Source: Gammaproteobacteria bacterium
Lineage (GTDB): Bacteria; Pseudomonadota; Gammaproteobacteria; SpSt-1174
DNA: 46,291 nt
Assembly: GCA_033839185.1 (NCBI GenBank)
Contig: JAJLKJ010000004.1
Coordinates: 1-46,291, forward strand
Direction: 5' to 3'
The notes beneath the pieces are model-generated. The model did no database searches. It saw nothing but the letters and a program-made list of their open reading frames with translations, and had not been told where the DNA came from. The position numbers were made by a program, and so were the translations under genes. How positions within the stretch are numbered: the first letter of the stretch is position 1; each line of letters opens with the position of its first letter. Below are positions 7,351 to 45,132 of this stretch, piece by piece.

Positions 7351-7503
7351 GGCCACAGAGGGCACAGAGTTCACAGAGGGGTTCGCGTGGTTTCGCAGGA
7401 TAAACCCTTTCTAGCGCAGCCCGATCTGCACCTGTTGATGACAGGCCCTGTGTAGTTGATTGGCCTGAGTTTTGCCTCTGTGGTCTCTGTGCCCTCTGTG
7501 GCG
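7351..7503. repeat. CACAGAG-family palindromic element, copy A (29-nt arms, 95-nt spacer)
   Basis: GGCCACAGAGGGCACAGAGTTCACAGAGG (7351-7379) versus CCTCTGTGGTCTCTGTGCCCTCTGTGGCG (7475-7503). The arms are reverse complements apart from about 3 positions. Confidence 0.88.
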
Positions 7504-7537
7504 AATAGACAGTTTCCAATACGGATAGACTTACATC

Positions 7538-8410
7538 ATGAAAGAAGACCGACCTAGTACCTCTTCCTCCCAGTCGCGCTGGCTGGATCGCCTGAGCCAG
7601 GTGTTGCTGGGGGAGCCCCGGGACCGTGAGCAGTTGATCGAGTTGTTGCGCGGCGCGCAGCAGCGGGAGCTGCTGGATATGGATGCGCTCGCCATGATCG
7701 AGGGCGTCTTGCAGGTCTCGGAGATGCAGGTACGGGACATCATGATCCCGCGCTCGCAGATGGTGGTGGTGGAGCAGGATGCGCGGGTGGCGGAGATGCT
7801 GCCGGTGATCATCGACTCGGCCCATTCGCGTTTCCCCGTGGTGGGCGACAGTCGCGACGACGTGGAGGGCATCCTGCTGGCCAAGGACCTGCTGCGGTTT
7901 TATGCGGCGGAGCAGCGCGAGGAGGACTTCGACATCCAGGACTACCTGCGGCCGGCGGTCTTCATCCCCGAGAGCAAGCGCCTCAATGTGCTGCTCAACG
8001 AGTTCCGCAACAGCCACAACCACATGGCCATCGTGGTGGACGAGTACGGCGGCGTGTCGGGCCTGGTGACCATCGAGGACGTGCTGGAGCAGATCGTCGG
8101 CGAGATCGACGACGAGCATGACATCGTCGACGATGGCCACGACATCCTGCGTCACACCGACAACCGCTATACGGTGAAGGCGCTCACGCCGATCGACGAG
8201 TTCAACGAATACTTCGGCACCGAGTACAGCGACGAGGAATTCGACACCATCGGCGGTCTGCTGATGAACCGCTTCGGCCACGTGCCCAAGCGTGGCGAGG
8301 AGATCACGGTCGATCGCTTCGACTTCAAGGTGCTGCGCGCCGACAATCGTCGCATCCACCTGCTGCAGCTCAGCCTGCGGGCCAACGGCGGCGACGAGCC
8401 CGAGGCCTGA
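7538..8410 (+). CDS. corC: CBS-domain Mg/Co efflux-associated protein (CorC/YbeX, HlyC/CorC family)
   Basis: VRDIMIPRSQM, SAHSRFPV, HMAIVVDEYGGVSGLVTIEDVLEQIVGEI and a CorC_HlyC C-terminal region. Lies downstream of ybeY as in E. coli. Confidence 0.88.
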   Translation: MKEDRPSTSSSQSRWLDRLSQVLLGEPRDREQLIELLRGAQQRELLDMDALAMIEGVLQVSEMQVRDIMIPRSQMVVVEQDARVAEMLPVIIDSAHSRFPVVGDSRDDVEGILLAKDLLRFYAAEQREEDFDIQDYLRPAVFIPESKRLNVLLNEFRNSHNHMAIVVDEYGGVSGLVTIEDVLEQIVGEIDDEHDIVDDGHDILRHTDNRYTVKALTPIDEFNEYFGTEYSDEEFDTIGGLLMNRFGHVPKRGEEITVDRFDFKVLRADNRRIHLLQLSLRANGGDEPEA

Positions 8411-8416
8411 TCCGGC

Positions 8417-9925
8417 ATGAACTGGCTGCAGTGGCTCGCGGCCCGGCCGCGACTGGGTGACCTGCTCGCGCTCGCGGCCGGCGCCCTGCTGCCGCTGGCC
8501 TTCGCCCCCTTCGAATGGCGGCTGCTGTCCGTCCTCTCACCCGCGCTGCTGTTCCTGCTGTGGCTGCAGATCTCCCCGCGGCGCGCCTTCTGGCGCGGCT
8601 ATCTGTTCGGTCTGGGGCAGTTCGGGGTGGGCGTGTCCTGGGTGTACAACAGCATCCATCTCTTCGGTAACGCGGTGGCGCCGCTGGCCGGGCTGTTCAC
8701 CGCGCTGTTCATCGCCGTGCTGGCGCTTTATCCCGCCATCATCGGCAGCCTGATGGTGCGCCTTGGCCGCCGCTTCAGCCTGGGTGCGGCGGCGCTGCTG
8801 GTGGCACTGCCCTTCGGCTGGGTGCTCCACGAGTGGGTGCGCGGCTGGCTCTTCACGGGCTTTCCCTGGCTGCTGCTCGGTCATCCGCAGGTCGACTCCT
8901 GGCTGATGGGCTATGTGCCGGTGCTCGGTGCCTATGGCGCGAGCCTGGTGGCGGCGCTGCTGGCCGCGGGGCTGGCCGGTCTGCTGGTGCTGCCCGGTCG
9001 GCGGCGCTGGCTGGCCGGCGGCGGCGTCGCGGCCCTGGTCCTGGGCGGTCTGCTGCTGGCGGCGCTGTCCTGGACACGACCGGTCGGCGAGACGCTGAGC
9101 GTGAGCATCGTGCAGCCGTCCATTGCGCAGGAGGACAAGTGGCGGCGTGAGCAGTTCCAGCCAACCCTGGAGATCTACGAAAAGCTCACCCGCGCGCACT
9201 TCGGCCGCGACGTGATCGTGTGGCCGGAGTCGGCCATCCCCGCCACCTTCGGGCAGGTGGCCGCGGACTACCTGCGACCACTGGCCGCCGATGCCCATGT
9301 CCACGGGACGGCGCTGGTCACCGGTATCTTCGTGCGGGATCCGCAGGACGGCACCTACTACAACAGCCTGGTCGTGCTGGATGGCGAGATCGACGTCTAC
9401 CACAAGCGGCACCTCGTCCCCTTCGGCGAGTACACGCCGCTGCGCGGACTGCTGGGCTGGCTGGACCGCTTCGTCGTCATTCCCATGTCCGACCTGGGCA
9501 CCGGCACCGGCCGGCCGCTGCTCCAGGTCAACGGCCACCCCGTCGGCGCCTCGATCTGCTACGAGGACGCCTTCGGCGAGGAGGTGATCGAGGCCCTGCC
9601 GGAGGCGGCCTATCTCATCAACGTCAGCAACGACGCCTGGTTCGGTGACAGCCTCGCCCCCTGGCAGCATCTCGAGCTCGCGCGCATGCGCGCCCTGGAG
9701 AGCGGGCGCTGGATGGTGCGTGCCACCAACACGGGGGTGTCCGCCGTGATCGACGCCCGCGGGCGGCTGGTCGCCGTCTCGCCCCAGTTCGAGCGGCATG
9801 TGCTCAATGCCGAGATACAGCCCTACGAGGGCATGACGCCCTATGCCCGCTGGGGGAACTGGCCGGTGGTGGGGCTGGCGGTTCTGGTGCTGGGGCTGCT
9901 GGCCGCCCTGCGGTGGAGGCGGTGA
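8417..9925 (+). CDS. lnt: apolipoprotein N-acyltransferase
   Basis: Multi-pass N-terminus followed by a nitrilase-like domain with WPESA and ICYEDAFGEE. Conserved position after corC. Confidence 0.9.
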   Translation: MNWLQWLAARPRLGDLLALAAGALLPLAFAPFEWRLLSVLSPALLFLLWLQISPRRAFWRGYLFGLGQFGVGVSWVYNSIHLFGNAVAPLAGLFTALFIAVLALYPAIIGSLMVRLGRRFSLGAAALLVALPFGWVLHEWVRGWLFTGFPWLLLGHPQVDSWLMGYVPVLGAYGASLVAALLAAGLAGLLVLPGRRRWLAGGGVAALVLGGLLLAALSWTRPVGETLSVSIVQPSIAQEDKWRREQFQPTLEIYEKLTRAHFGRDVIVWPESAIPATFGQVAADYLRPLAADAHVHGTALVTGIFVRDPQDGTYYNSLVVLDGEIDVYHKRHLVPFGEYTPLRGLLGWLDRFVVIPMSDLGTGTGRPLLQVNGHPVGASICYEDAFGEEVIEALPEAAYLINVSNDAWFGDSLAPWQHLELARMRALESGRWMVRATNTGVSAVIDARGRLVAVSPQFERHVLNAEIQPYEGMTPYARWGNWPVVGLAVLVLGLLAALRWRR

Positions 9926-9951
9926 GGCGGGGCCCTGTCGGGCCGTTCATA

Positions 9952-10036
9952 GTCCGTGGTCCGTTGTGAAACCCAGGGTGCGTATCCGCTATGCCCCATC
10001 CGGACTGCTGAAGTGGAGTCTCAACGGACCACGGAC
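9952..10036. repeat. heptamer-stem hairpin (15-bp perfect inverted repeat, 55-nt loop) between convergent lnt and the DUF1451 gene
   Basis: GTCCGTGGTCCGTTG (9952-9966) versus CAACGGACCACGGAC (10022-10036). The stem is itself a tandem heptamer, GTCCGTG GTCCGTT. Confidence 0.8.
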
Positions 10037-10041
10037 CGCTT

Positions 10042-10560
10042 TCAGGGCCTCTTGCGGGTGAAGGTGGTGGCGTGGCACCGGGGGCAGGGCGGGACGTGGC
10101 CGGCCTTCTTGAAGTGCAGTTCCTCGCCGCATTCGCTGCAGGTGAGGGTGCCGGGGCCGGTGATCTCGCCGGTCTGGTAGATGTTGGCGACCTGGGCGCG
10201 GGCGGCGATCTCGGCGAGTTCGACGCGGGTACGGTCGGCCACGGAGGTGATGAGGTCGAGCAGGTTGGCCTCGATCAGTTCCAGGTCCATGTGGAACCAG
10301 GTGCCGATGTCCTCGCCACTCTCGTGCAGGTAGGCGCCGATCTCGGCGAGGTCGCGCCGGATGTACTCGGCGATCTCCTCGGCCTCCTCGCGGGTGGCCT
10401 CCCCGAGCTCGACGCTCTTCTCGCGAGCCGTCTCCAGGGCATGCTCGATGCGCGGGCGGGTCTTTTCCTCCGCCTCCTCGATGGAATGCTTCAGCCGCTC
10501 CATCATCCGGTGATAGAGATCGAGGCGGTGCTCTTCGTGCGGCTTCTGGTGGTCGGTCAT
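10042..10560 (-). CDS. zinc-ribbon-containing protein (DUF1451-like)
   Basis: 172-aa acidic helical protein ending in CSECG...PPCPRCH (CxxC...CxxC). The same lnt / leuS neighbourhood is seen in pseudomonads. Confidence 0.7.
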   Translation of the reverse strand: MTDHQKPHEEHRLDLYHRMMERLKHSIEEAEEKTRPRIEHALETAREKSVELGEATREEAEEIAEYIRRDLAEIGAYLHESGEDIGTWFHMDLELIEANLLDLITSVADRTRVELAEIAARAQVANIYQTGEITGPGTLTCSECGEELHFKKAGHVPPCPRCHATTFTRKRP

Positions 10561-10593
10561 CGCAAACGCTCCTGTCTGATGGTTGCCTTATAG

Positions 10594-13305
<2,712 letters not shown>

Positions 13306-13306
13306 G

Positions 13307-13801
13307 GTGTCGCGTTACGTGCCGCGCCTGGTGTTCGTGCTGCTCGCCGTCCTGCTGGCGGCCGGCTGCGGTTTCCAGTTGCGCGGCGCGGCCAACCTGC
13401 CGCCCGAGATGGCGCGCACCTACATCAGCGGCCTGGATGCGCGCGACGTCCTGTTCCTGGAGCTCAAGCGCCAGCTGCGCGCCATGGGCGTCGAGGTGGT
13501 GGATGGGCCCGAGCAGGCCACCGCGCAGTTGCGATTCCTGGAGCGGCGCGATACACGCCGCGTACTCTCGGTCGGCAATCAGGCCACGGTGCGCGAATAC
13601 GAGCTCATGACCAGCGTCCGCTTCGATGCGCGCGGCATCGGCAACGACTTTCGTCGAGACCCCGTCACCCTGACCGCCACCCGCGAACTCAGCTTCGACG
13701 AGACCAACGTCCACAGCACCGCCGGCGAGGAGGCCCTGCTGCGCGAGGACATGCAGCGGGACATGGTGCAGCGCGTGTTGCGCCGGCTGGAGACGCACTG
13801 A
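13307..13801 (+). CDS. lptE: LPS-assembly lipoprotein LptE
   Basis: Lipobox LLAAGCGFQLRG, ~160 aa, immediately downstream of leuS (GTG 1 nt after the leuS stop). Confidence 0.78.
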   Translation: MSRYVPRLVFVLLAVLLAAGCGFQLRGAANLPPEMARTYISGLDARDVLFLELKRQLRAMGVEVVDGPEQATAQLRFLERRDTRRVLSVGNQATVREYELMTSVRFDARGIGNDFRRDPVTLTATRELSFDETNVHSTAGEEALLREDMQRDMVQRVLRRLETH

Positions 13802-13934
13802 AAGTCGCAAGTCGCAAGTCGCGAGTGGGCAGTCCAGGAAATTCAATGCGCCACAGAGGGCACAGAGTCAAACTGCTTCCCCGATGGCCTCTATGTGCTC
13901 TGTGCCCTCTGTGGTGTCCAGACTTCCCGCTTGC
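13802..13934. repeat. CACAGAG-family element, copy B, with (AAGTCGC)x3 outer array
   Basis: AAGTCGC x3 at 13802-13822. Arms are GCGCCACAGAGGGCACAGAG (13848-13867) and CCTCTATGTGCTCTGTGCCCTCTGTGGTG (13888-13916). A degenerate complementary flank GACTTCCCGCTTGC lies at 13921-13934. Confidence 0.82.
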
Positions 13935-13965
13935 CTGAGTGCACTTCGGGGGCTAACTTAAGTCC

Positions 13966-14829
13966 ATGACCTCTCTCGCCTTTATCGGCCCCGGCATCAT
14001 GGGGCGCCCCATGGCGCTGAACCTGATGGGCGGTGGCCACGACATGCATGTCTATGCCCGCCGGGCCGAGGCGGCCGAGCCGCTGGTGGCGGCGGGCGCC
14101 AGGGCCTGGGGCTCGCCGGCCGAGGCCGCCGCGCAGGCCGAGATGATCTTCTCCTGCGTCTCGGACACGCCCGACGTGGAAGACGTGCTGCTCGGTGCGC
14201 AGGGTGTGGTCCACGGGGCCCGGTCCGGCAGTGTCGTCGTCGACATGAGCACCATCTCCCCCAGCGCCACCCGGGAGATGGCCGCCCGGCTCGCCGAGCG
14301 GGGCATCGAGATGCTGGATGCCCCGGTGTCCGGGGGCGAGCAGGGCGCGATTGCCGGCACGCTCTCCATCATGGTGGGGGGCAAGGCCGAGGTCCTGGCG
14401 CGGGTGCGGCCGCTGCTGGACCTCATGGGCAGGAACATCGTGCACGTCGGCGGCAACGGGGCGGGGCAGGTGGCCAAGGCCTGTAACCAGATCGTCGTCG
14501 CCCAGACCCTGGTCGGCGTGGCCGAGGCCCTGCAGCTCGCCAGGCGTGAGGGCGTGGATGCCGCCCGCGTGCGCGAGGCCCTGCTCGGGGGCTTTGCCGG
14601 CTCGAAGATCCTCGAGGTCCACGGCCAGCGCATGCTGGACGAAAACTACACGCCGGGTTTCAAGGCACGCCTGCATACCAAGGATCTCGGCATCGCCCTG
14701 GCCGAGGCCGAGTCCCTGGGGCTCGACGTCACGGCGGTGCGCGCCGCTGCCGATCTCATCCGGCGGGTGGCCGAGGAGATCGACGGCGAGCTGGACCACT
14801 CGGCGGTGTTCCGGCTGCTTGGCGAATGA
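13966..14829 (+). CDS. NAD(P)-dependent 3-hydroxyacid dehydrogenase (HIBADH / 2-hydroxy-3-oxopropionate reductase family)
   Basis: N-terminal Rossmann motif FIGPGIMGRPMA, plus DAPVSGG and GAGQVAKACNQ signatures of the family. Confidence 0.8.
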   Translation: MTSLAFIGPGIMGRPMALNLMGGGHDMHVYARRAEAAEPLVAAGARAWGSPAEAAAQAEMIFSCVSDTPDVEDVLLGAQGVVHGARSGSVVVDMSTISPSATREMAARLAERGIEMLDAPVSGGEQGAIAGTLSIMVGGKAEVLARVRPLLDLMGRNIVHVGGNGAGQVAKACNQIVVAQTLVGVAEALQLARREGVDAARVREALLGGFAGSKILEVHGQRMLDENYTPGFKARLHTKDLGIALAEAESLGLDVTAVRAAADLIRRVAEEIDGELDHSAVFRLLGE

Positions 14830-14852
14830 CTCGGTTGAAGCCCCCTCAACGC

Positions 14853-14880
14853 AAAAGGCCCGGGAGATCCCGGGCCTTTT
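14853..14880. terminator. bidirectional intrinsic terminator between convergent genes
   Basis: AAAAGGCCCGGGA-GA-TCCCGGGCCTTTT is a perfect palindrome with A/T runs on both sides. Confidence 0.65.
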
Positions 14881-14905
14881 GCGTGGTGACGACTGATGCC
14901 GTCGA

Positions 14906-15349
14906 TCAGGGCTTGACGTAGGTGTAGCCCTGGCCCTGCAGGTGGGAGAGATGGGCGACGCCGCTGGGGACGATGTCGCTTTCCTTCACGTCGTAGAGGT
15001 CCTTCTTGTAGTCGATGCCCTTGCCCTTGAGGGTGTTGGCGCAGACCTGGAACTCGACGTTCTGCATCTTCAGGCTGTCGACGCGGGAGCGCAGGTCCTC
15101 GTTGGCCTTCGCGCCCTTGAGCAGGTCGACCCCGCCGCTGTGCATCACGACCTTGATCTCCATGTTCTCGGCGCCCACGGCGTTGATGTGGTTCTGGATG
15201 TTGCGCAGGGCGGCCATATGGGTCTTGGCGTCGCCGGAATTGATGTGGTAGACGGCCTTCTGCTTGCCGTAGTCGCCGGCAAAGGCGGCGCCGGAGAAGG
15301 CAATCAGGACGGCAGCGATGGACATCAGTGACATGACGAGTTTTTTCAT
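14906..15349 (-). CDS. DsrE/DsrF-like family protein with N-terminal signal peptide
   Basis: MKKLVMSLMSIAAVLIAFSGAAFA signal peptide, then a COG1416-type DsrE-like fold (KAVYHINSGD ... FQVCANTL). The ATG at 15349 has SD GGAG; the track ORF extends upstream to 15475. Confidence 0.65.
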   Translation of the reverse strand: MKKLVMSLMSIAAVLIAFSGAAFAGDYGKQKAVYHINSGDAKTHMAALRNIQNHINAVGAENMEIKVVMHSGGVDLLKGAKANEDLRSRVDSLKMQNVEFQVCANTLKGKGIDYKKDLYDVKESDIVPSGVAHLSHLQGQGYTYVKP

Positions 15350-15531
15350 GGGGTAGAACTCCTTCCATTCCTGTCTGTTTAGGGTTGGCCATGCGTTATG
15401 CATTGTTTTTATGAGCCCGGTCCGGGCCAGTGGGCCGGGTTGTGATTGTGACGAGTGAGGCAAACGTCCGATCACTGACTGGATGATGACTGAACGGAAG
15501 CGCTTATTCCATCCGGCGCCATCCCGCCCCT

Positions 15532-16002
15532 TCAGATATGGACGCTGAAGTCGCCGTGGCGCGCCTTGCCCAGCAGGTTGCGGAATGCGGCCCCGCTCAG
15601 GTGGACCAGGGATTCATGGTCGCCGGCCTCGAGATAGATGTCGTCCTGGGTATCGAGGCTGCTGTCGACCAGGGTCTCCATGCCATAGGCCGGACCCAGG
15701 GCCGGGACGGCGCCGGGGGCGCAGTCGGCGAACAGGGCGCTCACCTCCCGCTCGGTGGCCAGCCCCACCAGTTCACCCAGCTCGTGATGCAGGCGGGCGA
15801 GCTGGAGGCGGTGGGTGGCGGGCAGGGCGGCGAGCAGGTAGTGCCCGGCGTCTTCCAGTACCACGGCCTTGGCCAGGCGGTCGCCCGGGATGTGGGCGGC
15901 CTCGGCGCTGCGATTGGCCGAGGGCGTGGGGTCGTGGCGCACGAGCTCGTAGGCGATGCCGTGGTCGTCGAGATACTGTTTTAGCGTGGTGCTGATGCCC
16001 AT
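15532..16002 (-). CDS. YbaK/EbsC-like aminoacyl-tRNA deacylase domain protein
   Basis: 156 aa from the ATG at 16002 (SD GGAG). KAVVLEDAGHYLLAALPATHRLQL...GAVPALG resembles the YbaK/ProX editing fold. Confidence 0.6.
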   Translation of the reverse strand: MGISTTLKQYLDDHGIAYELVRHDPTPSANRSAEAAHIPGDRLAKAVVLEDAGHYLLAALPATHRLQLARLHHELGELVGLATEREVSALFADCAPGAVPALGPAYGMETLVDSSLDTQDDIYLEAGDHESLVHLSGAAFRNLLGKARHGDFSVHI

Positions 16003-16054
16003 GGCGTGATCTCCTCGGCAGATGGGCGATCCACCGAGTATAGTCCGGTGCGCT

Positions 16055-16453: not shown

Positions 16454-16528
16454 GCCTTTCTCCTGCCTTCTGAATGGTGCTGGGGACGAGTGTAGCCCCT
16501 GTCCGGCCATTTTCGGGGTCTGTTCCGG

Positions 16529-18188: not shown

Positions 18189-18217
18189 TGCCACAGAGGG
18201 GACAGAGATCACAGAGG
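18189..18217. repeat. CACAGAG-family solo arm, copy C (no partner arm found)
   Basis: TGCCACAGAGGGGACAGAGATCACAGAGG. No CTCTGTG arm lies between 18218 and the zupT stop at 18305. Confidence 0.7.
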
Positions 18218-21299: not shown

Positions 21300-21874
21300 G
21301 CGCCGTGGCTGAGGCCTCGCTCGATACCGGCGAGCGCCGGCAGCTGCTGGTCATCGCCCGGCAGTCCATCGAGCAGGGCCTGCATGGCGGGGAACCCCTC
21401 CGGCTTGCGCAGGACGACCTGCCGCCCCGACTGCGGGAGACGGGCGGCACCTTCGTCACCCTCAGGCGCCACGGCGAGCTGCGCGGCTGCATCGGCACGC
21501 TCGAGCCGCATCAACCCCTGGCGCAGGACGTGGCCGAACACGCCTTTGCCGCCGCCTTCCGCGACCCCCGCTTCCCCCCGCTGCGAGCCGACGAGCTCGA
21601 CGACCTGACGATCGACATCGCCATCCTCGGCCCAGCCGAGGAGCTGGTGTTTCAGGACGAGGCCGACCTCGTGCGTCAGCTGCGTCCCGGCGCCGACGGC
21701 CTCATCCTGCAGGAGGGCGCGCGGCGCGGGACCTTCCTGCCGAGCGTGTGGGAGCAGCTGCCCGATCCCGCTGAGTTCCTGCGACAGCTCAAGCGCAAGG
21801 CCGGCCTGCCGGCCGACCACTGGTCGGACACGCTCAGGGTCTGGCGCTACGGCGTCGAGGTGGTAGGGGGCTGA
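21296..21874 (+). CDS. AmmeMemoRadiSam system protein A (AMMECR1 domain)
   Basis: GTFVTLRRHGELRGCIGTLEP and RGTFLPSVWEQLPDP. The GTG at 21296 overlaps the Memo stop (GTGA). Confidence 0.85.
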   Translation: MSAVAEASLDTGERRQLLVIARQSIEQGLHGGEPLRLAQDDLPPRLRETGGTFVTLRRHGELRGCIGTLEPHQPLAQDVAEHAFAAAFRDPRFPPLRADELDDLTIDIAILGPAEELVFQDEADLVRQLRPGADGLILQEGARRGTFLPSVWEQLPDPAEFLRQLKRKAGLPADHWSDTLRVWRYGVEVVGG

Positions 21875-21899
21875 AGTTTGAAGTTTGAAGTTTGAAGTT
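21872..21899. repeat. perfect heptanucleotide tandem repeat (TGAAGTT)x4
   Basis: Counted directly from the sequence. The first TGA is the stop codon of the AMMECR1-domain gene. Confidence 0.97.
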
Positions 21900-22058
21900 T
21901 GAGGGGTGAATCGCCTGGCGGGCACGGCCCGCCCTATTGTTCATCAGCCACAGAGCTCACAGAGGTATGACAAGGTGGTTTTACTTTGTGTCCTCTGTGG
22001 CAATACCCGTCTGAATGGCTCTGTCCTTCCCACTTCAAACTTCAAACTTCACCCCTAA
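21872..22058. repeat. CACAGAG-family element, copy D, full nested form: heptamer array / GC hairpin / core palindrome / complementary heptamer array
   Basis: (TGAAGTT)x4 at 21872-21899. GGCGGGC-ACG-GCCCGCC at 21917-21933. Arms at 21947-21965 and 21984-22001. CTTCAAA CTTCAAA CTTCACC at 22033-22053. Confidence 0.88.
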
Positions 22059-23077: not shown

Positions 23078-23079
23078 GA

Positions 23080-30595: not shown

Positions 30596-31273
30596 ATGTC
30601 GACGCGCACGTTGGGGCTGTCCGACGAACTCTATGACTACCTGAAGAAGGTCTCGCTGCGCGAGGACGCGCTGCTCGCACGCCTGCGTGAAGAGACCCGG
30701 GCGCATCCGCACGGGCGCATGCAGATCTCGCCCGAGCAGGGGCAGTTCATGCGCCTGCTGGTCGGATTGCTGGGCGCGCGTCGTGCCGTGGAGATCGGCA
30801 CCTTCACCGGTTACAGTGCGCTGTGCATCACGCAGGGCATGGGCGGGCAGGGCGAACTCGTCTGCTGCGACACCAGTGACGAGTGGACACGGATCGCCCG
30901 GCGCTACTGGCAGGAGGCCGGCGTGGACGGGCGCATCCGCCTCGAGCTCGGCCCCGGTATCGACACCCTCAACCGCCTGCTCGCCGAGGGCGAGGCCGGC
31001 CGCTTCGACTTCGCCTTCATCGACGCCGACAAGCAGAACTACCCCGCTTACTACGAGCGCTGTTACGAGCTGCTGCGCCCCGGCGGCGTGATCGCCATCG
31101 ACAACACCCTCTGGGGCGGCGCCGTCGCCGACGAGGCCGACCAGCAGGCCAGCACCCGCGCCATCCGCCGCTTCAACGAGGCGGTGCACCGGGACGAGCG
31201 GGTGGAACTGTCGCTGCTGCCCATCGGGGACGGGCTCACGCTGGCGCGCAAGCGGGCGGGGCGTGACGCGTGA
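30596..31273 (+). CDS. class I SAM-dependent O-methyltransferase (caffeoyl-CoA OMT-like)
   Basis: AVEIGTFTGYSAL, FDFAFIDADKQNY and GGVIAIDNTLWGG. Strong SD AAGGAGGAGAGG before the ATG at 30596. Confidence 0.8.
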   Translation: MSTRTLGLSDELYDYLKKVSLREDALLARLREETRAHPHGRMQISPEQGQFMRLLVGLLGARRAVEIGTFTGYSALCITQGMGGQGELVCCDTSDEWTRIARRYWQEAGVDGRIRLELGPGIDTLNRLLAEGEAGRFDFAFIDADKQNYPAYYERCYELLRPGGVIAIDNTLWGGAVADEADQQASTRAIRRFNEAVHRDERVELSLLPIGDGLTLARKRAGRDA

Positions 31274-31279
31274 GGCGAC

Positions 31280-31378
31280 AGACGTTAGGCGAATAGTCTA
31301 AGCGCCACAGAGGGCACAGAGAAAGAACACGACCGGTTTACCTCTGTGATCTCTGTGTCCTCTGTGGCTAAAACGTCT
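31280..31378. repeat. CACAGAG-family element, copy E (inverted orientation relative to A, B and F)
   Basis: Outer AGACGTT (31280-31286) pairs with AACGTCT (31372-31378). Arms are GCGCCACAGAGGGCACAGAG (31302-31321) and CCTCTGTGATCTCTGTGTCCTCTGTGGC (31341-31368). Confidence 0.84.
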
Positions 31379-31409
31379 TTACATCATGCGCGCCATCCAC
31401 GCCCAACGT

Positions 31410-36701: not shown

Positions 36702-36707
36702 AGGCGG

Positions 36708-36908
36708 TCAGCCCTTCGGCGGGTAGCCCAGCGCGGCGAGCCGCTGCTCGATCTCGGCGCGGATGTCGCCGTCCGCCTCCACCGTCACCCGGCCACTGGC
36801 GATATCGACGTTCACCTCGTTGATGCGGGGGTCTTCCAGCAGCCCCGTACTGATGGCGCTGGCGCAGCCGCCACACTTGATGTTCTGGGCATCGATCTCG
36901 ATCTGCAT
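36708..36908 (-). CDS. heavy-metal-associated (HMA) domain protein
   Basis: MQIEIDAQNIKCGGCASAI... (CxxC in a beta-alpha-beta-beta-alpha-beta context). The ATG at 36908 is preceded by AGGAGAA; the track ORF extends to 36932. Confidence 0.65.
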   Translation of the reverse strand: MQIEIDAQNIKCGGCASAISTGLLEDPRINEVNVDIASGRVTVEADGDIRAEIEQRLAALGYPPKG

Positions 36909-37036
36909 CTGCTTCTCCTGGCCGGCGGTCAAAGGCTGCGCGGCGACTGTGGTTTTGCGCGTGAGGTTTCGCCCCGCATTATATCCGGGTGTAGAATACG
37001 GGGTTCAACCTCAAGCCGTCGCACCACGGAGCCAGC

Positions 37037-38944
37037 ATGCCGCAGTATCGTTCCCGCACCACCACCCATGGCCGCAACATGGCCGGCGCCCGCGCCCTGT
37101 GGCGCGCCACCGGCATGAAGGACGGTGATTTCGACAAGCCGATCATCGCCATTGCCAACTCCTTCACCCAGTTCGTGCCGGGCCACGTCCATCTCAAGGA
37201 CCTGGGCCAGATGGTCGCGCGCGAGATCGAGGCCCACGGCGGCGTGGCCAAGGAATTCAACACCATCGCGGTGGACGACGGCATCGCCATGGGCCACAGC
37301 GGCATGCTGTACTCGCTGCCCTCGCGCGAGGTGATCTCGGATGCGGTGGAGTACATGGTGAACGCCCACTGCGCCGATGCCCTGGTGTGCATCTCCAACT
37401 GCGACAAGATCACCCCCGGCATGCTCAACGCCGCGCTGCGCCTGAACATCCCCACCGTGTTCGTCTCCGGTGGGCCGATGGAGTCCGGCAAGGCCATCAT
37501 CGGCGGCAAGGAGGTGCACCTCGACCTGGTGGACGCCATGGTCTCGGCCGCCAACCCCAACGAGTCCGACGAGGACGTGATGGAGATGGAGCGCTCGGCC
37601 TGCCCGACCTGCGGCTCCTGCTCCGGCATGTTCACCGCCAACTCCATGAACTGCCTGACCGAGGCCCTGGGCCTGTCGCTGCCGGGCAACGGCTCGACGC
37701 TCGCCACCCATGCCGACCGCCGCGAACTGTTCCTGCGGGCCGGCCGTCTGGCCGTGGACATCGCCAGGCGCTACTACGAGCAGGACGACACCTCCGTGCT
37801 GCCGCGCTCGGTGGCCACCTTCGAGGCCTTCGAGAACGCCATGAGCCTGGACATCGCCATGGGCGGTTCCACCAATACCGTCCTGCACCTGCTGGCCGCG
37901 GCCCAGGAGGCGGGCGTGGACTTCACCATGGCCGACATCGACCGCCTCTCGCGCAAGGTGCCCAACATCTGCAAGGTGGCCCCGGCCACGCAGAAGTACC
38001 ACATGGAGGACGTGCACCGCGCCGGCGGCGTGATCGGCATCCTCGGCGAGCTGGACCGCGGCGGCCTGCTGCACCGCGACGTGCCCACCGTGCACAGCAA
38101 GACCCTGGGCGAGGCCCTGGAGAAATACGACGTGATGCGCACCACCGACGAGGGCGTGAAGACCTTCTTCCGCGCCGGCCCCGGCAACGTGCGCACCACC
38201 GAGGCCTTCAGCCAGGACAAGCGCTGGCCGGCGCTGGATCTGGACCGCGAGAACGGCTGCATCCGCGACATCGCGCACGCCTACAGCAGGGACGGCGGCC
38301 TGGCCGTGCTCTATGGCAACATCGCCCCCGAGGGCTGCGTGGTGAAGACCGCGGGCGTGGAGCAGAGCATGATCGAGGCCCACGAGCTGCGCTACACCAC
38401 CAGCGTGCCCACCTCCACGCTGCGCGGTTTCGCCGGCCCGGCGCGCATCTTCGAGAGCCAGGAGGCGGCCGTGGAGGCCATCCTGGGCGACCAGATCAAG
38501 GCCGGTGACGTGGTCATCATCCGCTACGAAGGGCCGCGCGGCGGGCCGGGCATGCAGGAGATGCTGTATCCGACCAGCTACCTCAAGTCCAAGGGCCTGG
38601 GCAAGGAATGCGCGCTCATCACTGACGGGCGTTTCTCCGGCGGCACCTCCGGCCTGTCCATCGGCCACGTCTCGCCGGAGGCGGCGGAGGGCGGTCCGAT
38701 CGGTCTGGTCGAGGAGGGCGACCTCATCGAGATCGACATCCCGAACCGCGGCATCAACGTGGTGCTCACCGAGGAGGAGCTGGCTGCCCGCCGTGCGGCC
38801 ATGGAGGCGAAGGGCGCAGACGCCTGGAAGCCGGTGGGTCGCGACCGCGTGGTCTCCAGCGCGCTCAAGGCCTACGCCGCCATGACCACCTCCGCCTCCC
38901 GCGGCGCGGTGCGCGACGTCAGCCAGCTGGAGCCCAGGGGCTGA
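37037..38944 (+). CDS. ilvD: dihydroxy-acid dehydratase
   Basis: [34 protein letters not shown], and [55 protein letters not shown]. Confidence 0.96.
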
Positions 38945-38977
38945 GGCCGCACTTTTCCGCGCAGTCGGTTGCACCCG

Positions 38978-39010
38978 CAGGGGGCCGGATGATCCGGCCC
39001 CCTGTTTTTT
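38978..39010 (+). terminator. intrinsic terminator after ilvD
   Basis: CAGGGGGCCGGAT/GATCCGGCCCCCTG stem followed by TTTTTT (39005-39010). Confidence 0.85.
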
Positions 39011-39120
39011 GTGTGGGCCTGTCGGCCATGGCATCCCCGGGCTGCTGTGCTATAGGTTGAGCAAGCACCCGAGAGAAGCCCGTCAGCCTGGCCGCCGCCG
39101 GCGGCCGTGAGGATTGTTGC

Positions 39121-39450
39121 ATGCGCGAGGACTACCAGGACTACCCGCTACTCGACTGGGAGGACGATTACAGTGCGGCCAAGGCGGCCGCCTGTATCCT
39201 CGACGAGGAACGCCTCATCCTCCTCATGCCACGCGAACTCGATCTCAGCGTGGATCCCGAGGAGTGCGGCTGCGACCTGGAGGAGGACGACGGCATGCTG
39301 TACGGCTGCGACCCCGGCGAGACCCTGGAGATCCTGGCCGAGGCCAGCGGGATCGAGGGTCTGGTCGAGGTGGGCGAGGCCGCCGCCGAGGTCGGCGTGC
39401 TGCTGGACATCGATCTGGAGGGGCGGCGCCTGATCTTCCGTGCCTCGTGA
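39121..39450 (+). CDS. hypothetical, strongly acidic 109-aa protein
   Basis: ORF with SD GAGGA upstream. 31 D/E versus 7 K/R by my count. I recognise no family. Confidence 0.45.
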   Translation: MREDYQDYPLLDWEDDYSAAKAAACILDEERLILLMPRELDLSVDPEECGCDLEEDDGMLYGCDPGETLEILAEASGIEGLVEVGEAAAEVGVLLDIDLEGRRLIFRAS

Positions 39451-39558
39451 TGGTCATCAGTTGCTGATCTGGGTCATCTTTCCCGCTTGCTGACATGGCG
39501 CAGGTGTACACCGGGTCCATACTCGGGGGGCTCACCAGCAATCCGAGGAGGGTGTGCA

Positions 39559-39837
39559 ATGAAACAAGTCCTGTTCACAGCCATATTCATCGCCTTCGGC
39601 GCCGGCGCAGTGGCGGATGTCCCCATGACCTTCGAGGATCTGGATCGCGATGCCAACGGCTATATCAACCAGTCCGAGGCCGGTGCGCGCAAGGACCTGA
39701 AGGCCGACTTTTCCTCCATCGACAAGGATGGCGACGGCAGGTTGACCATCAGGGAATACCAGGCCTATGAAGGCAAGGGGCGGATGAGCCCGCCGGAAGA
39801 GAGTGAGGTACCCGAACCGGGTGCGGCGCCGTATTGA
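39559..39837 (+). CDS. secreted EF-hand calcium-binding protein
   Basis: Signal peptide MKQVLFTAIFIAFGAGAVA and two EF loops, DLDRDANGYINQSE and DKDGDGRLTIRE. SD GAGGAGGG before the ATG at 39559. Confidence 0.65.
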   Translation: MKQVLFTAIFIAFGAGAVADVPMTFEDLDRDANGYINQSEAGARKDLKADFSSIDKDGDGRLTIREYQAYEGKGRMSPPEESEVPEPGAAPY

Positions 39838-39849
39838 TCCGCAGTGTGC

Positions 39850-39897
39850 CGCCCGAACGGAAAAGCCCCCGCATTGCGGGGGCTTTTTTGTTCGGGC
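39850..39897. terminator. intrinsic terminator after the EF-hand gene (long hairpin)
   Basis: GCCCCCGC-ATT-GCGGGGGC followed by TTTTTT. The stem is extended by outer GCCCGAAC/GTTCGGGC. Confidence 0.8.
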
Positions 39898-40280
39898 TCA
39901 ATTGAGCCGCTGATGATTTCGCCCTTATGGGGCTGGTGTGATCTTTTTCGGCGTTTGATGGATACGGGCGAGGTACTTTTGTTCGGCGCGTCCATGCGCC
40001 TCACCCCTTCGGGGCTGGCGCGTCAAATAGCTCCATGCGATTTGATCTTTGCTTGCCCAAAGAAAAGTACCCAGAAGAAAAGGCACCCCGCTATCTCGCC
40101 CTTCGGGTGCCCTGCGCTTCTCGCTCCAGACGGGGTTCCGCTGCGCTGCTTGGCGAGAAAAGGGGAGGGCAGTCAAACCCGCTTCGATAGGCCGTAGCCT
40201 GGATGAAGCGTCAGCGGGAATCCGGGGACGTCGGTGATGCGAAGATCAAGCCGGCGTTACCGCCGATAAAGCGGCGACCG
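39898..40280. other. unassigned hairpin-rich non-coding region between convergent genes
   Basis: No credible ORF. Three related ~20-nt units (39919-39938, 40000-40019, 40096-40115). Nested stems GTACTTTT (39972-39979) / AAAAGTAC (40063-40070) enclose the GCGCC-TCA-CCCC-TTCG-GGGG-CT-GGCGC hairpin. Confidence 0.4.
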
Positions 40281-42305
<2,025 letters not shown>

Positions 42306-42412
42306 GGGGGCCACGCGTGATCGAGGGGGTATTCTATCGGCTCCCGGCGGCAAGCGGCATATTGACATCCGCCAAACCCGGCCCCGATCACGCGCTGACG
42401 CCCCCAGGCCGA

Positions 42413-42418
42413 TATAAT
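42413..42418 (+). promoter_or_regulatory. consensus -10 hexamer TATAAT, 6 nt before the ATG of the thioredoxin-fold gene
   Basis: TATAATgcccgcATG. No SD and no good -35 at 17 bp. Confidence 0.28.
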
Positions 42419-42424
42419 GCCCGC

Positions 42425-42799
42425 ATGACCAAAAGCGATACGTCCATGGCCGGCAGCCCTGCGGGCATCGTCAGGCTCGACCAGTTCCGCTTCCACCACG
42501 TGCTGGAGGAGACCCCGGGGCTTGCCCTGGTGTTCTTCACCGGCCCGCACTGCGGGGCCTGCAAGGTCCTGCGCCGGGTGCTGGCCGACTACCTCGGGAC
42601 GCGCCCGCTCAGCGTGTTCGAGGTGGATGCCGAGCGCGACCTGGCGCTGGCCCACGAGTTCGGGGTGTTTCACCTGCCGAGCATGTACCTCTACCGGGAT
42701 GGCGTCTTCCACTGTGAGTTGCACAGCGAGCCGCGGGCGCCGGCCCTGGATGTGGCGATCGCCGCGGCCCGCGCCCGCCCGGCCGAGGAGGCGCCGTGA
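42425..42799 (+). CDS. thioredoxin-fold protein (CGAC motif)
   Basis: LVFFTGPHCGACKVL. 124 aa from the ATG at 42425. Its stop overlaps the ampD GTG (GTGA). Confidence 0.6.
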   Translation: MTKSDTSMAGSPAGIVRLDQFRFHHVLEETPGLALVFFTGPHCGACKVLRRVLADYLGTRPLSVFEVDAERDLALAHEFGVFHLPSMYLYRDGVFHCELHSEPRAPALDVAIAAARARPAEEAP

Positions 42800-43362
42800 G
42801 CATGGACGTGACAGGCGGCTGGCTGGCGGGGGCGCGCCGCGTGCCCTCGCCGAACTCTAACGAGCGGCCGGCGGGGATGGCCCCGGAGCTCATCGTCATC
42901 CACAACATCAGCCTGCCGCCCGGCGAGTTCGGCGGGCCCTGGATCGATGCCCTGTTCACCAACACCCTGGATCCGCAGGCGCATCCGTATTTTCGCGAGA
43001 TCGCCGGGCTCGAGGTCTCCGCCCACCTGCTGATCCGCCGCGACGGCGAGTGCGTGCAGTACGTGCCCTTCGATGCGCGCGCCTGGCATGCCGGACAGTC
43101 GAGCTTTTGCGGGCGCGAGAACTGCAACGACTTCTCCATCGGCATCGAGCTGGAGGGGGCGGACGACATCCCCTTCGCGGACCTGCAGTACCAGCGCCTC
43201 GCCGAGGTGATCGCGGCCCTGCTGGGCGCCTATCCGGGGCTCTCGCCCGAGCGCATCGCGGGACACAGCGATATCGCGCCGGGGCGCAAGACCGATCCGG
43301 GGCCGGTCTTCGACTGGGCGCGGCTGCATGCCGCGCTGGCGACGCGACTTGCAAGCCGCTGA
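42796..43362 (+). CDS. ampD: 1,6-anhydro-N-acetylmuramyl-L-alanine amidase AmpD
   Basis: VIHNISLPPGEFGGPWIDALF, AWHAGQS and SIGIELEG are near-identical to AmpD blocks. Start is GTG at 42796 or ATG at 42802. Confidence 0.9.
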   Translation: MSMDVTGGWLAGARRVPSPNSNERPAGMAPELIVIHNISLPPGEFGGPWIDALFTNTLDPQAHPYFREIAGLEVSAHLLIRRDGECVQYVPFDARAWHAGQSSFCGRENCNDFSIGIELEGADDIPFADLQYQRLAEVIAALLGAYPGLSPERIAGHSDIAPGRKTDPGPVFDWARLHAALATRLASR

Positions 43363-43452
43363 GCGAACGACGACACTTTATCCTGCTGTTTTTCCGGACA
43401 GACCGCTGTTCGCGGACAAAGAACAACAAGACGCAGAATCCAAGGACGCCCC

Positions 43453-44328
43453 ATGACACTGATCACCGTTCTCATCGGCCTCGTGCTCGAGCGCTTCGTC
43501 GGCTATCTCGACGACTTCCGCCAGCTGGGCTGGTTTCGCCAGTATGGCGAGTGGCTGCAGGCGCGCCTGGGCAGCCTGGCCGACGGAGCTCCGGGGGTGG
43601 CGCTGATCCTCATCGGTCCCGTCCTGGTGATCTGGGGCGTGAGCGAGCTCTTCGATGATGCCCTGCTGGGGCTGCTCGAACTCCTCTTCGGCGTGGCCGT
43701 GCTGCTCTACTGCCTGGGGCCGCGTGATCTGCGGCAGGACGTGGAGTCCTATACCGAGGCCCTGGAATCCGGCGACGAGGCCCGCATCGAGCGCGCCACC
43801 GCACGCCTGGTCGACGGCCCCCTGCCCGAGGAGCCGGTGGCGCGTCTGCGGGCCGTGGTGGAGGGCGTCTTCATCGAGGCCAACAGCCGGCTGCTGGCCG
43901 TGGTCTTCTGGTTCGTGATCCTGGGGCCGCTGGGCGCGGTGGTCTACCGCCTGAGTCATGCGCTGGCGCAGCAGGCCGCGGCCGACAGCCGCCTGCGGCG
44001 TGCCGCTACGCACTGGCTGGGCCTGCTCGACTGGGTTCCCGCACGCCTGGTGGCCCTGTTCTACGGTCTCACCGGCCACTTCGACGATACCCTGGCGGTA
44101 TTGCGCCGCCATCTGGTCGGCCCGCTGGAGGCGCTCCCGGCCACCAACCGTGCCCTGCTGGCCGAGGCCGGCATCGCCGGCCTGCAGTTCGACGAGCTGG
44201 CCAGCGAAGAGCTGGATGCCGAGCAGGTGAATCTCATCTTCACCACCACCAGCACCATGGTGCTGCGCACCCTGGCGCTGGCCGTCACCCTGCTGGCCGT
44301 CGCCACGCTGGGTGGCTGGACCGCCTGA
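43453..44328 (+). CDS. ampE: AmpE-like membrane regulatory protein
   Basis: MTLITVLIGLVLERF and LLDWVPARLVALFYGL, downstream of ampD as in enterics. Confidence 0.75.
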   Translation: MTLITVLIGLVLERFVGYLDDFRQLGWFRQYGEWLQARLGSLADGAPGVALILIGPVLVIWGVSELFDDALLGLLELLFGVAVLLYCLGPRDLRQDVESYTEALESGDEARIERATARLVDGPLPEEPVARLRAVVEGVFIEANSRLLAVVFWFVILGPLGAVVYRLSHALAQQAAADSRLRRAATHWLGLLDWVPARLVALFYGLTGHFDDTLAVLRRHLVGPLEALPATNRALLAEAGIAGLQFDELASEELDAEQVNLIFTTTSTMVLRTLALAVTLLAVATLGGWTA

Positions 44329-44932
44329 TCCCGCCGCTTCCCCGCCCGTGCCGGCCACGGTCCTCGACCTGCTGCGCCACGGCGAGCCCGTTGGCGGCCG
44401 CTGCTATCGGGGCAATGGCGTCGACGACCCGCTGAGCGAGGCCGGCTGGGCCCAGATGCAGGCCGCGGTGGAGGCCGCCCCCGACTCCTGGACCCGCGTC
44501 GTCACCTCCCCCTTGAGCCGCTGCCGGGCCTTCGCCGCGGCGCTGGGCGAACGCCTCGGTATCCCCCTGGACGTCGAGGCCGATCTGCGCGAGGTGGGTT
44601 TCGGGGTCTGGGAGGGGCTCACGCCGGAGAGGGTGGCCGCGCGCTACCCGCAGATGCTGGCGGCGTTTCGCGCCGACCCGGTGGGGCGGCGGCCCGAGGG
44701 CGCCGAACCCGCTCAGGCCTTCTTCGATCGCAGCGTCCGGGCGCTGGAGGCCATCGCCCGCCGCCACCCGGGGGAGCGGCTGCTCATCGTCGCCCATGCC
44801 GGCACCCTGCGCGCCGCCACCGCCTGGGCCGTACAGGCGCCCCTGGCCGAGGTCTTCCGCATCAAGGTCGGCTACGCCGCACGGGTGCGGCTGCGCTACG
44901 AGGCCGGACGCCCCTGGCTTGAGTTGGGGTGA
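44312..44932 (+). CDS. histidine phosphatase family protein (CobC/alpha-ribazole phosphatase-like)
   Basis: LDLLRHGEP (RHG motif) and IVAHAGTLRA. The start is uncertain: GTG at 44312 overlapping the ampE end, or GTG at 44348. Confidence 0.7.
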   Translation: MAGPPDPAASPPVPATVLDLLRHGEPVGGRCYRGNGVDDPLSEAGWAQMQAAVEAAPDSWTRVVTSPLSRCRAFAAALGERLGIPLDVEADLREVGFGVWEGLTPERVAARYPQMLAAFRADPVGRRPEGAEPAQAFFDRSVRALEAIARRHPGERLLIVAHAGTLRAATAWAVQAPLAEVFRIKVGYAARVRLRYEAGRPWLELG

Positions 44933-44953
44933 GGGAGAGGGAGCGGGAAGGAG

Positions 44954-45132
44954 TGAGGCGTGAGGAGTAAGGGGTTAGGCGGGCATGGCCCGCCCTGTTT
45001 TATTTGCCACAGAGCACACAGAGATCACAGAGGCGAACTAGGCTATGTTATTCCTCTGTGTCCTCTGTGGCGTTTAGACTTTTCGCCTCACGCCTCACGC
45101 CTCACGCCTCACGCCTCACGCCTCACGCCTCA
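44954..45132. repeat. CACAGAG-family element, copy F, full nested form with (CGCCTCA)x7
   Basis: TGAGGCG TGAGGAG TAAGGGG TTAGGCG at 44954-44981. GGCGGGC-ATG-GCCCGCC at 44978-44994. Arms at 45006-45033 and 45053-45071. CGCCTCA x7 at 45084-45132. Confidence 0.9.
45084..45132. repeat. perfect heptanucleotide tandem repeat (CGCCTCA)x7
   Basis: 49 nt counted directly from the sequence. On the minus strand it reads (TGAGGCG)x7, starting with the stop codon of the 45130..45891 gene. Confidence 0.97.

Follow-up and report, generated by a model that had tools for sequence, protein, structure and literature searches.

Intervening sequences (IVSs) in the 23S rRNA of Coxiella, Leptospira, Salmonella and other bacteria are small selfish inserts whose terminal inverted repeats form a long stem and which may carry a single small open reading frame (ORF) for S23p, a four-helix-bundle protein (PF05635); gene-less versions exist as well, and the scattered distribution of these inserts suggests horizontal transfer (PMC4990558). 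In Coxiella, the insert measures 428 nt, its terminal stem comprises 28 bp, it contains an S23p ORF, and cleavage by RNase III takes place within the stem (PMC4990558). Here, we analyze a family of hairpin elements with arms of tandem CACAGAG units, found in 46,291 nt of DNA from a gammaproteobacterium (contig JAJLKJ010000004.1, assembly GCA_033839185.1; the whole stretch is referred to in the following as the window). We conclude that these loci are probably gene-less, stem-only members of a widespread class of selfish, IVS-like small cassettes with terminal inverted repeats built of tandem units. Arms of the 9-nt CACAGAG-NN type go with a gene for a PD-(D/E)XK protein (PF13366, the GxxExxY family), and arms made of heptamers go with a four-helix-bundle gene (PF05635). 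The copies in the window appear to have lost the cassette gene, or never to have had it.

The elements share with rRNA IVSs the small size, the stem-forming termini and the scattered distribution, and probably the option of a small gene. The core stems in the window are roughly in the range of ≈20–30 bp used to recognize an IVS terminal stem, and close relatives have a heptamer-armed PF05635 cassette at a site between ybeY and corC that holds one of the window's elements. Unlike IVSs, which sit in rRNA helix tips, the elements described here separate protein-coding genes. Tandem units of 7 or 9 nt make up their arms, and what CACAGAG arms enclose most often is a PD-(D/E)XK gene, where IVSs have S23p.

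A second described class is that of intergenic heptamer repeats, such as the tandem heptanucleotides of cyanobacteria, GGGAATC in Xanthomonas and TAACTGA in Beggiatoaceae. In the accessible portions of two reports (PMC4692102, PMC4679880), these arrays lie near ORF ends, may include the stop codon and close all three reading frames, are frequently found as convergent inverted pairs, and vary fast in length between close relatives. The outer arrays in the window and the arms of the PF05635 cassettes belong to this class. The same portions regard the arrays as simple sequence repeats that might act in translation or as G-quadruplexes, offer an origin by slippage as a hypothesis, and do not tie them to cassettes or to CACAGAG arms.

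Correia elements, enterobacterial repetitive intergenic consensus (ERIC) sequences, Rickettsia palindromic elements and Drosophila foldback elements are non-autonomous inverted-repeat elements that form hairpins in transcripts, and the inverted repeats of the Drosophila foldback elements are built of short tandem sub-repeats, as are the arms here. Unlike foldback elements and MITEs, the present family had no target-site duplication and no transposase partner that we could find. Our literature searches, whose coverage was incomplete, found no paper or Rfam family for the CACAGAG elements or for tandem-unit arms around GxxExxY or S23p genes, and a search for the motif string gave unrelated eukaryotic papers only. 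On this comparison, the outer arrays are of a known but unexplained class, and the elements would work like rRNA IVSs yet outside rRNA.

CACAGAG palindromes in the window

An earlier note on the window had listed six loci with CACAGAG arms, all of which we recovered. The motif CACAGAGNNCACAGAG, at ≤1 mismatch, matched 17 times, compared with 0.01 expected from dinucleotide-preserving shuffles, and exact CACAGAG occurred 25 times against 7.6 expected from the same kind of shuffle. All of these matches were inside the six loci. Five of these are true palindromes with 2–3 units of 9 nt (CACAGAG-NN) per arm. The sixth, at 18192–18216 on the + strand (CACAGAG gg GACAGAG at CACAGAG), is a lone arm, so that the claim of arms facing their complement holds for five loci and fails for this one, where the RNA fold was no better than shuffles (z −0.8). 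Loops were of the lengths given in the note, ≈18–20 nt in four copies and 95 nt in one (7379–7475).

Predicted RNA folds of the five palindromes, of a related element without a CACAGAG core (9952–10036) and of two composites beat 200 of 200 dinucleotide shuffles (z −5.1 to −8.9). The core stems have ≈18–27 paired positions, some of them interrupted at the 2-nt spacers, with energies of −29 to −45 kcal/mol (z −5 to −8). Some copies are nested, with the CACAGAG palindrome and a small terminator-like hairpin lying in the loop of a heptamer-armed element.

All copies lie between protein-coding genes. Their neighbors have housekeeping functions and include ybeY, corC, lptE and an AMMECR1-family gene; the window contains no tRNA gene and no rRNA. 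The elements had no match in Rfam at gathering thresholds and none at E-values up to 10, and a promoter scan of them found nothing. Several known motifs were compared by eye and rejected because key positions or spacings do not fit: DnaA boxes (TTATCCACA), the controlling inverted repeat of chaperone expression (CIRCE, TTAGCACTC-N9-GAGTGCTAA), sigma-54 and sigma-70 promoters, and CsrA sites. The small non-coding repeats of Deinococcus, considered on account of the 67% GC content, led to no relevant literature, and the window is from a Thioalkalivibrio-like gammaproteobacterium.

GxxExxY genes between tandem-unit arms

Full-length relatives of the palindromes enclose a gene. In Bacteroides finegoldii (L244), a gene annotated as "GxxExxY protein" lies exactly between two CACAGAG arms, as does a gene at a second locus (L091); both match TIGR04256 and PF13366 (PDDEXK_3). 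In a local search of loci that had been selected by the arm pattern, all six GxxExxY genes were bracketed by arms, two of them sitting kilobases away from the match by which the locus had been selected. The arms in the window match those around GxxExxY genes in L244, L247, L251, L269, L272 and others.

An unbiased sample was then drawn by the protein alone, giving 80 metagenome and 2 viral loci, 75 of them with both flanks. The flanking inverted-repeat score was ≥30 in 48 of the 75 and in none of the shuffles, and 62 loci exceeded their own shuffles. Tandem units upstream faced at least two complementary units downstream in 58 of the 75, with a unit period of 9 nt in 33 of those 58; the others had periods of 8, 10 or 11 nt. 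When small ORFs strongly bracketed by inverted repeats were considered, 34 of 50 were GxxExxY genes. The arms have a median length of 40 nt. The median distance from the upstream arm to the start codon is 11 nt, and that from the stop codon to the downstream arm is 7 nt. The upstream arm was purine-rich in 37 cassettes and pyrimidine-rich in 2. The heptamer varies between cassettes (CACAGAG, CACGGAG, CACGAAG, CACAAAG, CGCAGAG, CGCAAAG, CACAGAT and others), and both arms of one cassette share the same variant.

The ≈125-aa GxxExxY protein retains a D...E-x-K motif. A structure model (predicted local distance difference test score 96) had Cas4 (SSO0001) and lambda exonuclease as its nearest solved folds, with modest TM-scores; a sequence search of solved structures with the protein found nothing, and PADLOC gave a marginal match only. 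A 2012 survey listed PF13366 as a family of unknown function, present in prokaryotes and viruses, with multiple transfers (PMC3424549). Our scans of viral contigs found GxxExxY genes at 2 loci only and the PF05635 protein at none.

These genes bear on an origin for which the earlier note had proposed a search, an association with IS200/IS605-like transposases of the kind that maintain repetitive extragenic palindromes (REPs). REPs and their assemblies, bacterial interspersed mosaic elements (BIMEs) and REP doublets forming hairpins (REPINs), are short, multi-copy intergenic palindromes at gene 3′ ends, nested or clustered and thought to stabilize or terminate transcripts. The present elements are similarly placed and, like REPs kept by a REP-associated tyrosine transposase (RAYT, TnpA-REP), are rare between divergent genes. 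However, the genes between the arms in relatives belong to PF13366 and 23S_rRNA_IVP, not to the Y1 transposases, and the window has no transposase or RAYT gene, as the note itself had recorded. The ends read CCACAGAG, without the GTAG or CGTC head that defines REPs in the accessible part of one report (PMC3733652); the arms are tandem arrays of 18–27 nt, and the family crosses many phyla where REPs would be confined to one genus. With the head absent, the REP reading fails a defining test and is not supported; we consider it extremely unlikely.

The arms can also enclose other cargo. In a Pirellulales metagenome-assembled genome (MAG; L120, 80–1580), the ORF between the CACAGAG arms encodes 411 aa, has an R-x4-H motif like that of HEPN domains and matches nothing in Pfam or NCBIfam. 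A ≈105-aa ORF that appears GIY-YIG-like by eye (L110, 6560–6960) is bracketed by a non-tandem inverted repeat, cccgagcggagcgagggaaccctac / gtagggttccctcgcttcgctcggg; hairpin cassettes may thus have small nuclease genes of a second kind.

PF05635 genes between heptamer arms

The CorC protein encoded in the window shares 97% identity with its counterpart in a "Thioalkalivibrio sp." MAG and 72% with the one in T. sulfidiphilus. Relatives with 89–90% identical CorC (L327, L328) have, between ybeY and corC, a gene of 123–130 aa belonging to PF05635 ("23S_rRNA_IVP", the IVP gene in the following). Heptamer arrays of the GTCCGTT/AACGGAC type lie on both sides of this gene in L328 and are clear only downstream in L327. 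The 97% relatives retain a decayed copy of the PF05635 cassette at this site, and T. sulfidiphilus has a gene-less palindrome of ACAAGAG-type heptamers. Between lnt and DUF1451, the GTCCGTT heptamers of the window's 9952–10036 element are those of the IVP-gene arms, and longer orthologues of that element are present in L327 and L328. The ybeY–corC spacer of two 97% relatives (L329, 7373–7720; L330, 6605–7040) also contains several ≈120-nt repeats with ggtaggagcg...cgctcctac palindromes, a family unrelated to the CACAGAG arms.

The same arrangement occurs in cyanobacteria, where four of the six four-helix-bundle ("S23 ribosomal protein") genes examined sit between inverted arms of short tandem repeats. 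These are heptamers in three Nostoc records, including Nostoc edaphicum, in which GTAGGGA ×8 faces TCCCTAC ×5, and 7–8-nt GGAGATAA units in Picosynechococcus. On a plasmid of Picosynechococcus sp. PCC 7003 (L335, 315–744), the GGAGATAA-armed gene is flanked by cas10 and cmr3 within a type III-B CRISPR operon and separated from each of them by ≈36 nt.

Heptamer stems thus represent another arm type of the same kind of cassette and no outgrowth of the CACAGAG cores, since they also occur alone, in the window (9952–10036), in T. sulfidiphilus and around the cyanobacterial S23p genes. The earlier note had named arrays that occur independently of the cores as evidence against its reading. This applies in part: the arrays do occur alone, although they are ≈3-fold enriched near cores. 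Among pattern-selected loci, another tandem array lay within 100 nt of 19% of arms, compared with 6% of random positions, with period 7 the commonest.

Distribution and placement of the CACAGAG family

One genome per GTDB species was scanned for CCACAGAGNNCACAGAG, which has 15 specified bases, yielding at least 120 matches. With 15 specified bases, chance alone should give about 1,100 matches in 596 Gb, and single matches therefore mean little. Among the matches listed, however, ≈66 motif clusters had an inverted (++−−) architecture with arms 10–206 nt apart, and ≈5 had the reverse order. The inverted clusters came from genomes and MAGs labeled Acidobacteria, Planctomycetes, Chloroflexi, Nitrospirae, Gemmatimonadetes, Bacteroidetes, Verrucomicrobia, Firmicutes, and Beta-, Gamma- and Deltaproteobacteria; one archaeal MAG was among the carriers, which could be contamination. 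In total, CACAGAG arms are found in genomes and MAGs labeled as at least a dozen bacterial phyla. The family is thus neither species-specific nor genome-specific. Records of uncultured phages from human faeces contain arms as well, as do plasmid records from Bacteroides, Gemmatirosa, Pseudoalteromonas and Nostoc/Anabaena.

On IMG/VR viral contigs the motif is frequent, often as lone three-unit arms, many per contig. In L126, L127, L190, L207 and L220, such arms lie 0–40 nt upstream of the ATG of phage ORFs, in the same direction. A role as 5′ leaders was considered, but an ATG-started ORF followed within 45 nt in 25 of 103 cases compared with 16 of 103 for a mirror control, which is unconvincing. 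Two further genomes had unusual arrangements. In Shewanella metallivivens (L108, 4835–6117), at least seven complete CACAGAG/CACCGAG palindromes are arranged head to tail with a period of ≈145 bp, the element having been tandemly amplified. In a Chlamydiae MAG (L006, 1–2240), ≈235-bp repeats each include half an arm, CACCACCGAGCCCACAGAGagCACAGAG, followed by TAGACTTACATGAAAAG, with CCTCTTTG 8-mers nearby; TAGACTTACATGAAAAG closely resembles the window's TAGACTTACATCATGAAAG at 7526–7544.

Both ends of the elements share a consensus that is A-rich, followed by TT-N-R-C and CACAGAG-RR-CACAGAG, with the outer end TT-N-R-C|CACAGAG in 63 elements. A defined outer end in small, multi-copy elements with terminal inverted repeats, on phage contigs and plasmid records, is what would be expected of classical MITEs, that is, deletion derivatives of an insertion sequence with a DDE transposase that mobilizes them in trans. 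Yet among 86 elements no offset gave a conspicuous direct repeat of 3–9 bp, the proteins encoded by full-length partners have only ≈125 aa, and nine arm pairs 250–5000 nt apart held no recognizable transposase gene, although only some of the enclosed ORFs were scanned for families; the search between widely spaced arms found only the 411-aa ORF of L120 and unrelated phage ORFs. The classical MITE reading, like that of REPs, fails defining tests and is not supported, and we regard it as very improbable.

When compared with long ORFs, 43 of 44 palindromes adjoined at least one gene 3′ end, in agreement with the earlier note, and 1 of 44 was flanked by divergent genes; neighboring ORFs were a median of ≈35 nt away. 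This placement raises the possibility that the elements are ordinary terminators or attenuators made of slippage-prone repeats, with no selfish history and a heptamer shared by convergence or chance. The flanks of the family are A-rich on the left and T-rich on the right, like those of bidirectional terminators, and GC hairpins followed by T runs lie inside two composites in the window (21917–21933 and 44978–44994). Intergenic heptamer repeats are over-represented in bacteria, according to the accessible portions of two reports (PMC4692102; PMC4679880, citing Mrazek et al. 2007). Against this, the same 7-mer with the same 5-nt outer end recurs in unrelated phyla and on viral contigs, the link to two particular gene families is tight, and a simple terminator scan made no calls on the CACAGAG stems themselves. 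In addition, the 7346–7510 copy lies inside the ybeY–corC pair, and these genes are normally co-transcribed. On balance, an origin as ordinary terminators seems unlikely.

Turnover at the AMMECR1/AstE site

For the gap between the convergent AMMECR1 and AstE genes, relatives were ranked by how similar their AMMECR1 protein is to the window's (percent identity, as given below). The CACAGAG palindrome is present in 92% and 78% relatives and absent in 73% relatives, indicating that the element at this site is old and vertically inherited. Neither the heptamer unit nor its copy number is constant among the orthologues in L338, L339 and L340, and two near-identical sequences have TGAAGTT/TGAAGGG ×5 and ×7, respectively, so that the differences in presence and copy number that the earlier note had proposed to look for do exist. 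In the 92% relative, CACTTCA/CACCTCA ×7 stands where the window has ACTTCAA ×3. In 78% relatives (L339, 3063–3255; L340, 656–862), the inner module, consisting of the terminator-like hairpin and the palindrome, is inverted relative to the window (21872–22051), while the outer arrays keep the same orientation. Recombination between inverted arrays would produce such a change, and the inversion suggests that the arms do recombine.

A model for the cassettes and its alternatives

The model that we propose for these IVS-like cassettes is as follows. Transcribed from either strand, the arms would fold into an interrupted double-stranded RNA stem. By analogy with rRNA IVSs, where RNase III cleaves stems of similar size, an RNase III-type cut in this stem, or capping of the transcript 3′ end by it, would make the insert harmless, and harmless inserts would be tolerated right after stop codons and between co-transcribed genes. 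The tandem-unit arms would grow, shrink and homogenize by replication slippage, while the match between the two arms would be maintained by recombination or template switching between them, so that the arms would be copy-specific yet complementary. Gene-less copies would stay behind as transcript-end hairpins, and the PD-(D/E)XK protein is the candidate mobilizing enzyme. Spread would be partly vertical, because orthologous copies are common to relatives with 78–92% identical AMMECR1, and also horizontal, given that viral contigs and many phyla contain the elements.

Imperfect palindromes are known to mutate by template switching between their arms, and the uniformity of the arms within a cassette is best explained by slippage within an arm together with templated copying or recombination between arms. 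The earlier note had correctly observed that arm sequences differ between copies with complementarity kept within each copy, and had offered either compensatory selection or a templating mechanism as the cause; the data fit a mixture of the two. Mismatches between arms were G-U-compatible on the sense strand in 94 cases and A-C in 61, which offers modest support for selection on the RNA.

The 2-nt spacers within the arms are only weakly complementary, forming 70 Watson–Crick pairs of 154, compared with 55 expected and a maximum of 71 in 500 shuffles, from which it follows that the heptamer sequence is more conserved than the pairing. Together with the fixed end and arm order, this argues that the units are recognized by their sequence and do not serve purely as a stem, and the factor that recognizes them is perhaps the mobilizing enzyme. 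A distinct explanation is that each arm offers a series of sites to a protein that binds DNA or RNA sequence-specifically, either the cassette nuclease or a host factor, with the hairpin being secondary. Besides the conservation of the heptamer, it would account for the defined outer terminus at both ends, for the purine-rich arm coming first in cassettes (37 compared with 2) and in gene-less clusters, for the lone three-unit arms common on viral contigs, and for the single heptamer variant throughout both arms of a cassette. If the bound protein were the mobilizing enzyme, this explanation would overlap with the cassette model. However, unrelated PF13366 and PF05635 genes reside in cassettes of like build, so that arms are in general unlikely to be specific to the protein encoded between them; sites repeated every 9 nt would not share one face of B-form DNA; G-U-compatible mismatches exceed A-C ones; and the binding protein is hypothetical. 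We therefore think binding-site arrays a rather unlikely explanation, though a better one than the terminators, MITEs or REPs discussed above.

Several observations weigh against the elements being IVS-like cassettes. The lack of a target-site duplication counts here as well, and no transposition or homing event was seen. CACAGAG arms were observed around PF13366 genes only and not around a PF05635 gene. A local jackhmmer search of the window ORFs revealed no GxxExxY gene, there is no IVP gene, and the loops are just 18–95 nt, so that a source or mobilizing copy in this genome is hypothetical. The 95-nt loop at 7379–7475 was considered as a remnant of the relatives' IVP gene, but gave no significant alignment with it, and the occupants of the ybeY/corC site may thus be independent arrivals. 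Orthologous palindromes look old rather than recently mobile, and loss of genes from cassettes fits the data as well as insertion of genes into existing hairpin loops. Finally, mobility is deduced from the distribution of the family, with the nuclease as its putative agent, and processing of the stem by RNase III is argued by analogy. With these points taken into account, we still consider gene-less, IVS-like cassettes the probable identity of the window's elements.

A broader proposal, which we put forward tentatively and consider possible but doubtful, is that one class of selfish mini-cassettes with 7- or 9-nt tandem-unit arms, present in much of the prokaryotic world, unites three problems hitherto viewed apart, namely the origin of 23S rRNA IVSs, the abundant intergenic heptamer arrays of cyanobacteria, xanthomonads and sulfur bacteria, and the multi-copy GxxExxY and S23p families of unknown function. 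Such cassettes would insert at hairpin tips or gene boundaries by means of a PD-(D/E)XK nuclease, their arms would be kept matched by templated copying, and gene-less stems would be left as transcript-end structures tolerated or used by the host. If the cassette reading is true, hairpin repeats of many phyla and viral contigs are footprints of one class of mobile cassette; PF13366 and those PF05635 proteins not associated with diversity-generating retroelements, both large families of unknown function, gain a concrete role; and rRNA IVSs and intergenic heptamer arrays gain a plausible common source. The arms also represent a natural case for the co-evolution of the two sides of a palindrome. 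The elements sit at operon junctions, where they may shape transcript ends, and one coincided with an assembly break: a metagenome contig carrying the same region (L122, NODE_134) begins at the corC start codon (window position 7538), just beyond the 7346–7510 palindrome, which may have broken the short-read assembly.

Anatomy of the individual elements

The window's palindromes are polar and nested, as the earlier note had described. One side continues as GGCG-NN-TAGAC, at 7500–7510 and 45069–45079, as GGTGTCCAGAC at 13913–13923, and inverted at 31296–31305; an alignment of the copies extends this tail as TAGACT-TT-CGCCT. GGCGGGC-AYG-GCCCGCC is present at 21917–21933 and 44978–44994, both terminator-like on the + strand in a simple scan.

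The palindrome in the ybeY/corC gap (7346–7510) has arms of 3 units each at 7354–7378 and 7476–7500 around its long loop, and a polar tail, GGCGAATAGAC, at 7500–7510. A second TAGAC (7526–7530) precedes the corC ATG at 7538. The RNA fold of this element is −82.3 kcal/mol (z −6.3). The element without a CACAGAG core (9952–10036), which had been picked out in the note, is a heptamer-armed palindrome between the convergent lnt and DUF1451 genes, with arms GTCCGTG GTCCGTT GTGA (9952–9969) and TCAACGGACCACGGAC (10021–10036) and a fold of −45.2 kcal/mol (z −5.2).

A composite 3′ of the lptE stop codon (13802–13925) begins with AAGTCGC ×3.6 at 13802–13826, followed by CACAGAG arms at 13852–13867 and 13889–13913, in which one unit has decayed to CACATAG, and ends in the tail GGTGTCCAGACTT; its core folds at −45.2 kcal/mol (z −8.1). 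The nested composite that fills the AMMECR1/AstE gap (21872–22051) starts with TGAAGTT ×4.4 at 21872–21902, the first TGA being the stop codon, and continues through the terminator-like GC hairpin (21917–21933) and CACAGAG arms at 21949–21964 and 21984–21999 to the facing ACTTCAA ×2.9 array at 22032–22051 (−92.8 kcal/mol, z −8.9). These and the other tandem arrays in the window were called with Tandem Repeats Finder.

A palindrome of opposite polarity (31271–31378) has arms at 31306–31321 and 31342–31366, with AACGTCT next, before an ATG at 31386. Its left flank is the degenerate TGAGGCG ACAGACG TTAGGCG (31271–31291), whose first TGA is again the stop codon, and GTCTA at 31296–31300 is the reverse complement of TAGAC; the fold is −40.7 kcal/mol (z −7.5). 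The last element is a nested composite between convergent genes (44930–45133). A degenerate G-rich heptamer array (44930–44972) is followed by the terminator-like hairpin (44978–44994), arms at 45008–45032 (3 units) and 45054–45069 (2 units), then GGCGTTTAGAC, and CGCCTCA ×7.1 at 45084–45133, which faces the degenerate array at 44949–44972 and ends on the minus-strand stop codon 45130–45132 (−114.4 kcal/mol, z −8.1). A Thioalkalivibrio MAG (L074) has an element of near-identical architecture.

The flanks were thus partly as the earlier note had depicted them. TGAAGTT, CGCCTCA and AAGTCGC form tandem arrays, while AGACGTT/AACGTCT is one 7-bp inverted repeat without an array. The arms differ between copies, but CGCCTCA-type heptamers are found in three lineage copies in the alignment, in degenerate form at 31271–31291, and the outer arrays are therefore not fully copy-specific. 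Complementarity of the outer flanks holds within copies of this lineage; outside the lineage it is weak and, farther than five bases from the arms, barely exceeds chance. Six stop codons had been said to form the first triplet of a flank. Those at 13799, 21872, 31271 and 44930 and the minus-strand stop at 45130–45132 do abut or begin a flank, while the stop ending at 9925 is ≈27 nt before the heptamer arm at 9952. Elsewhere in the window, sub-threshold Rfam matches (Thr_leader, Leu_leader, asX2 and sX6) at 39833–39922 fall on a terminator-like hairpin, GCCCCCGCAATGCGGGGGCTT, that is unrelated to the elements.

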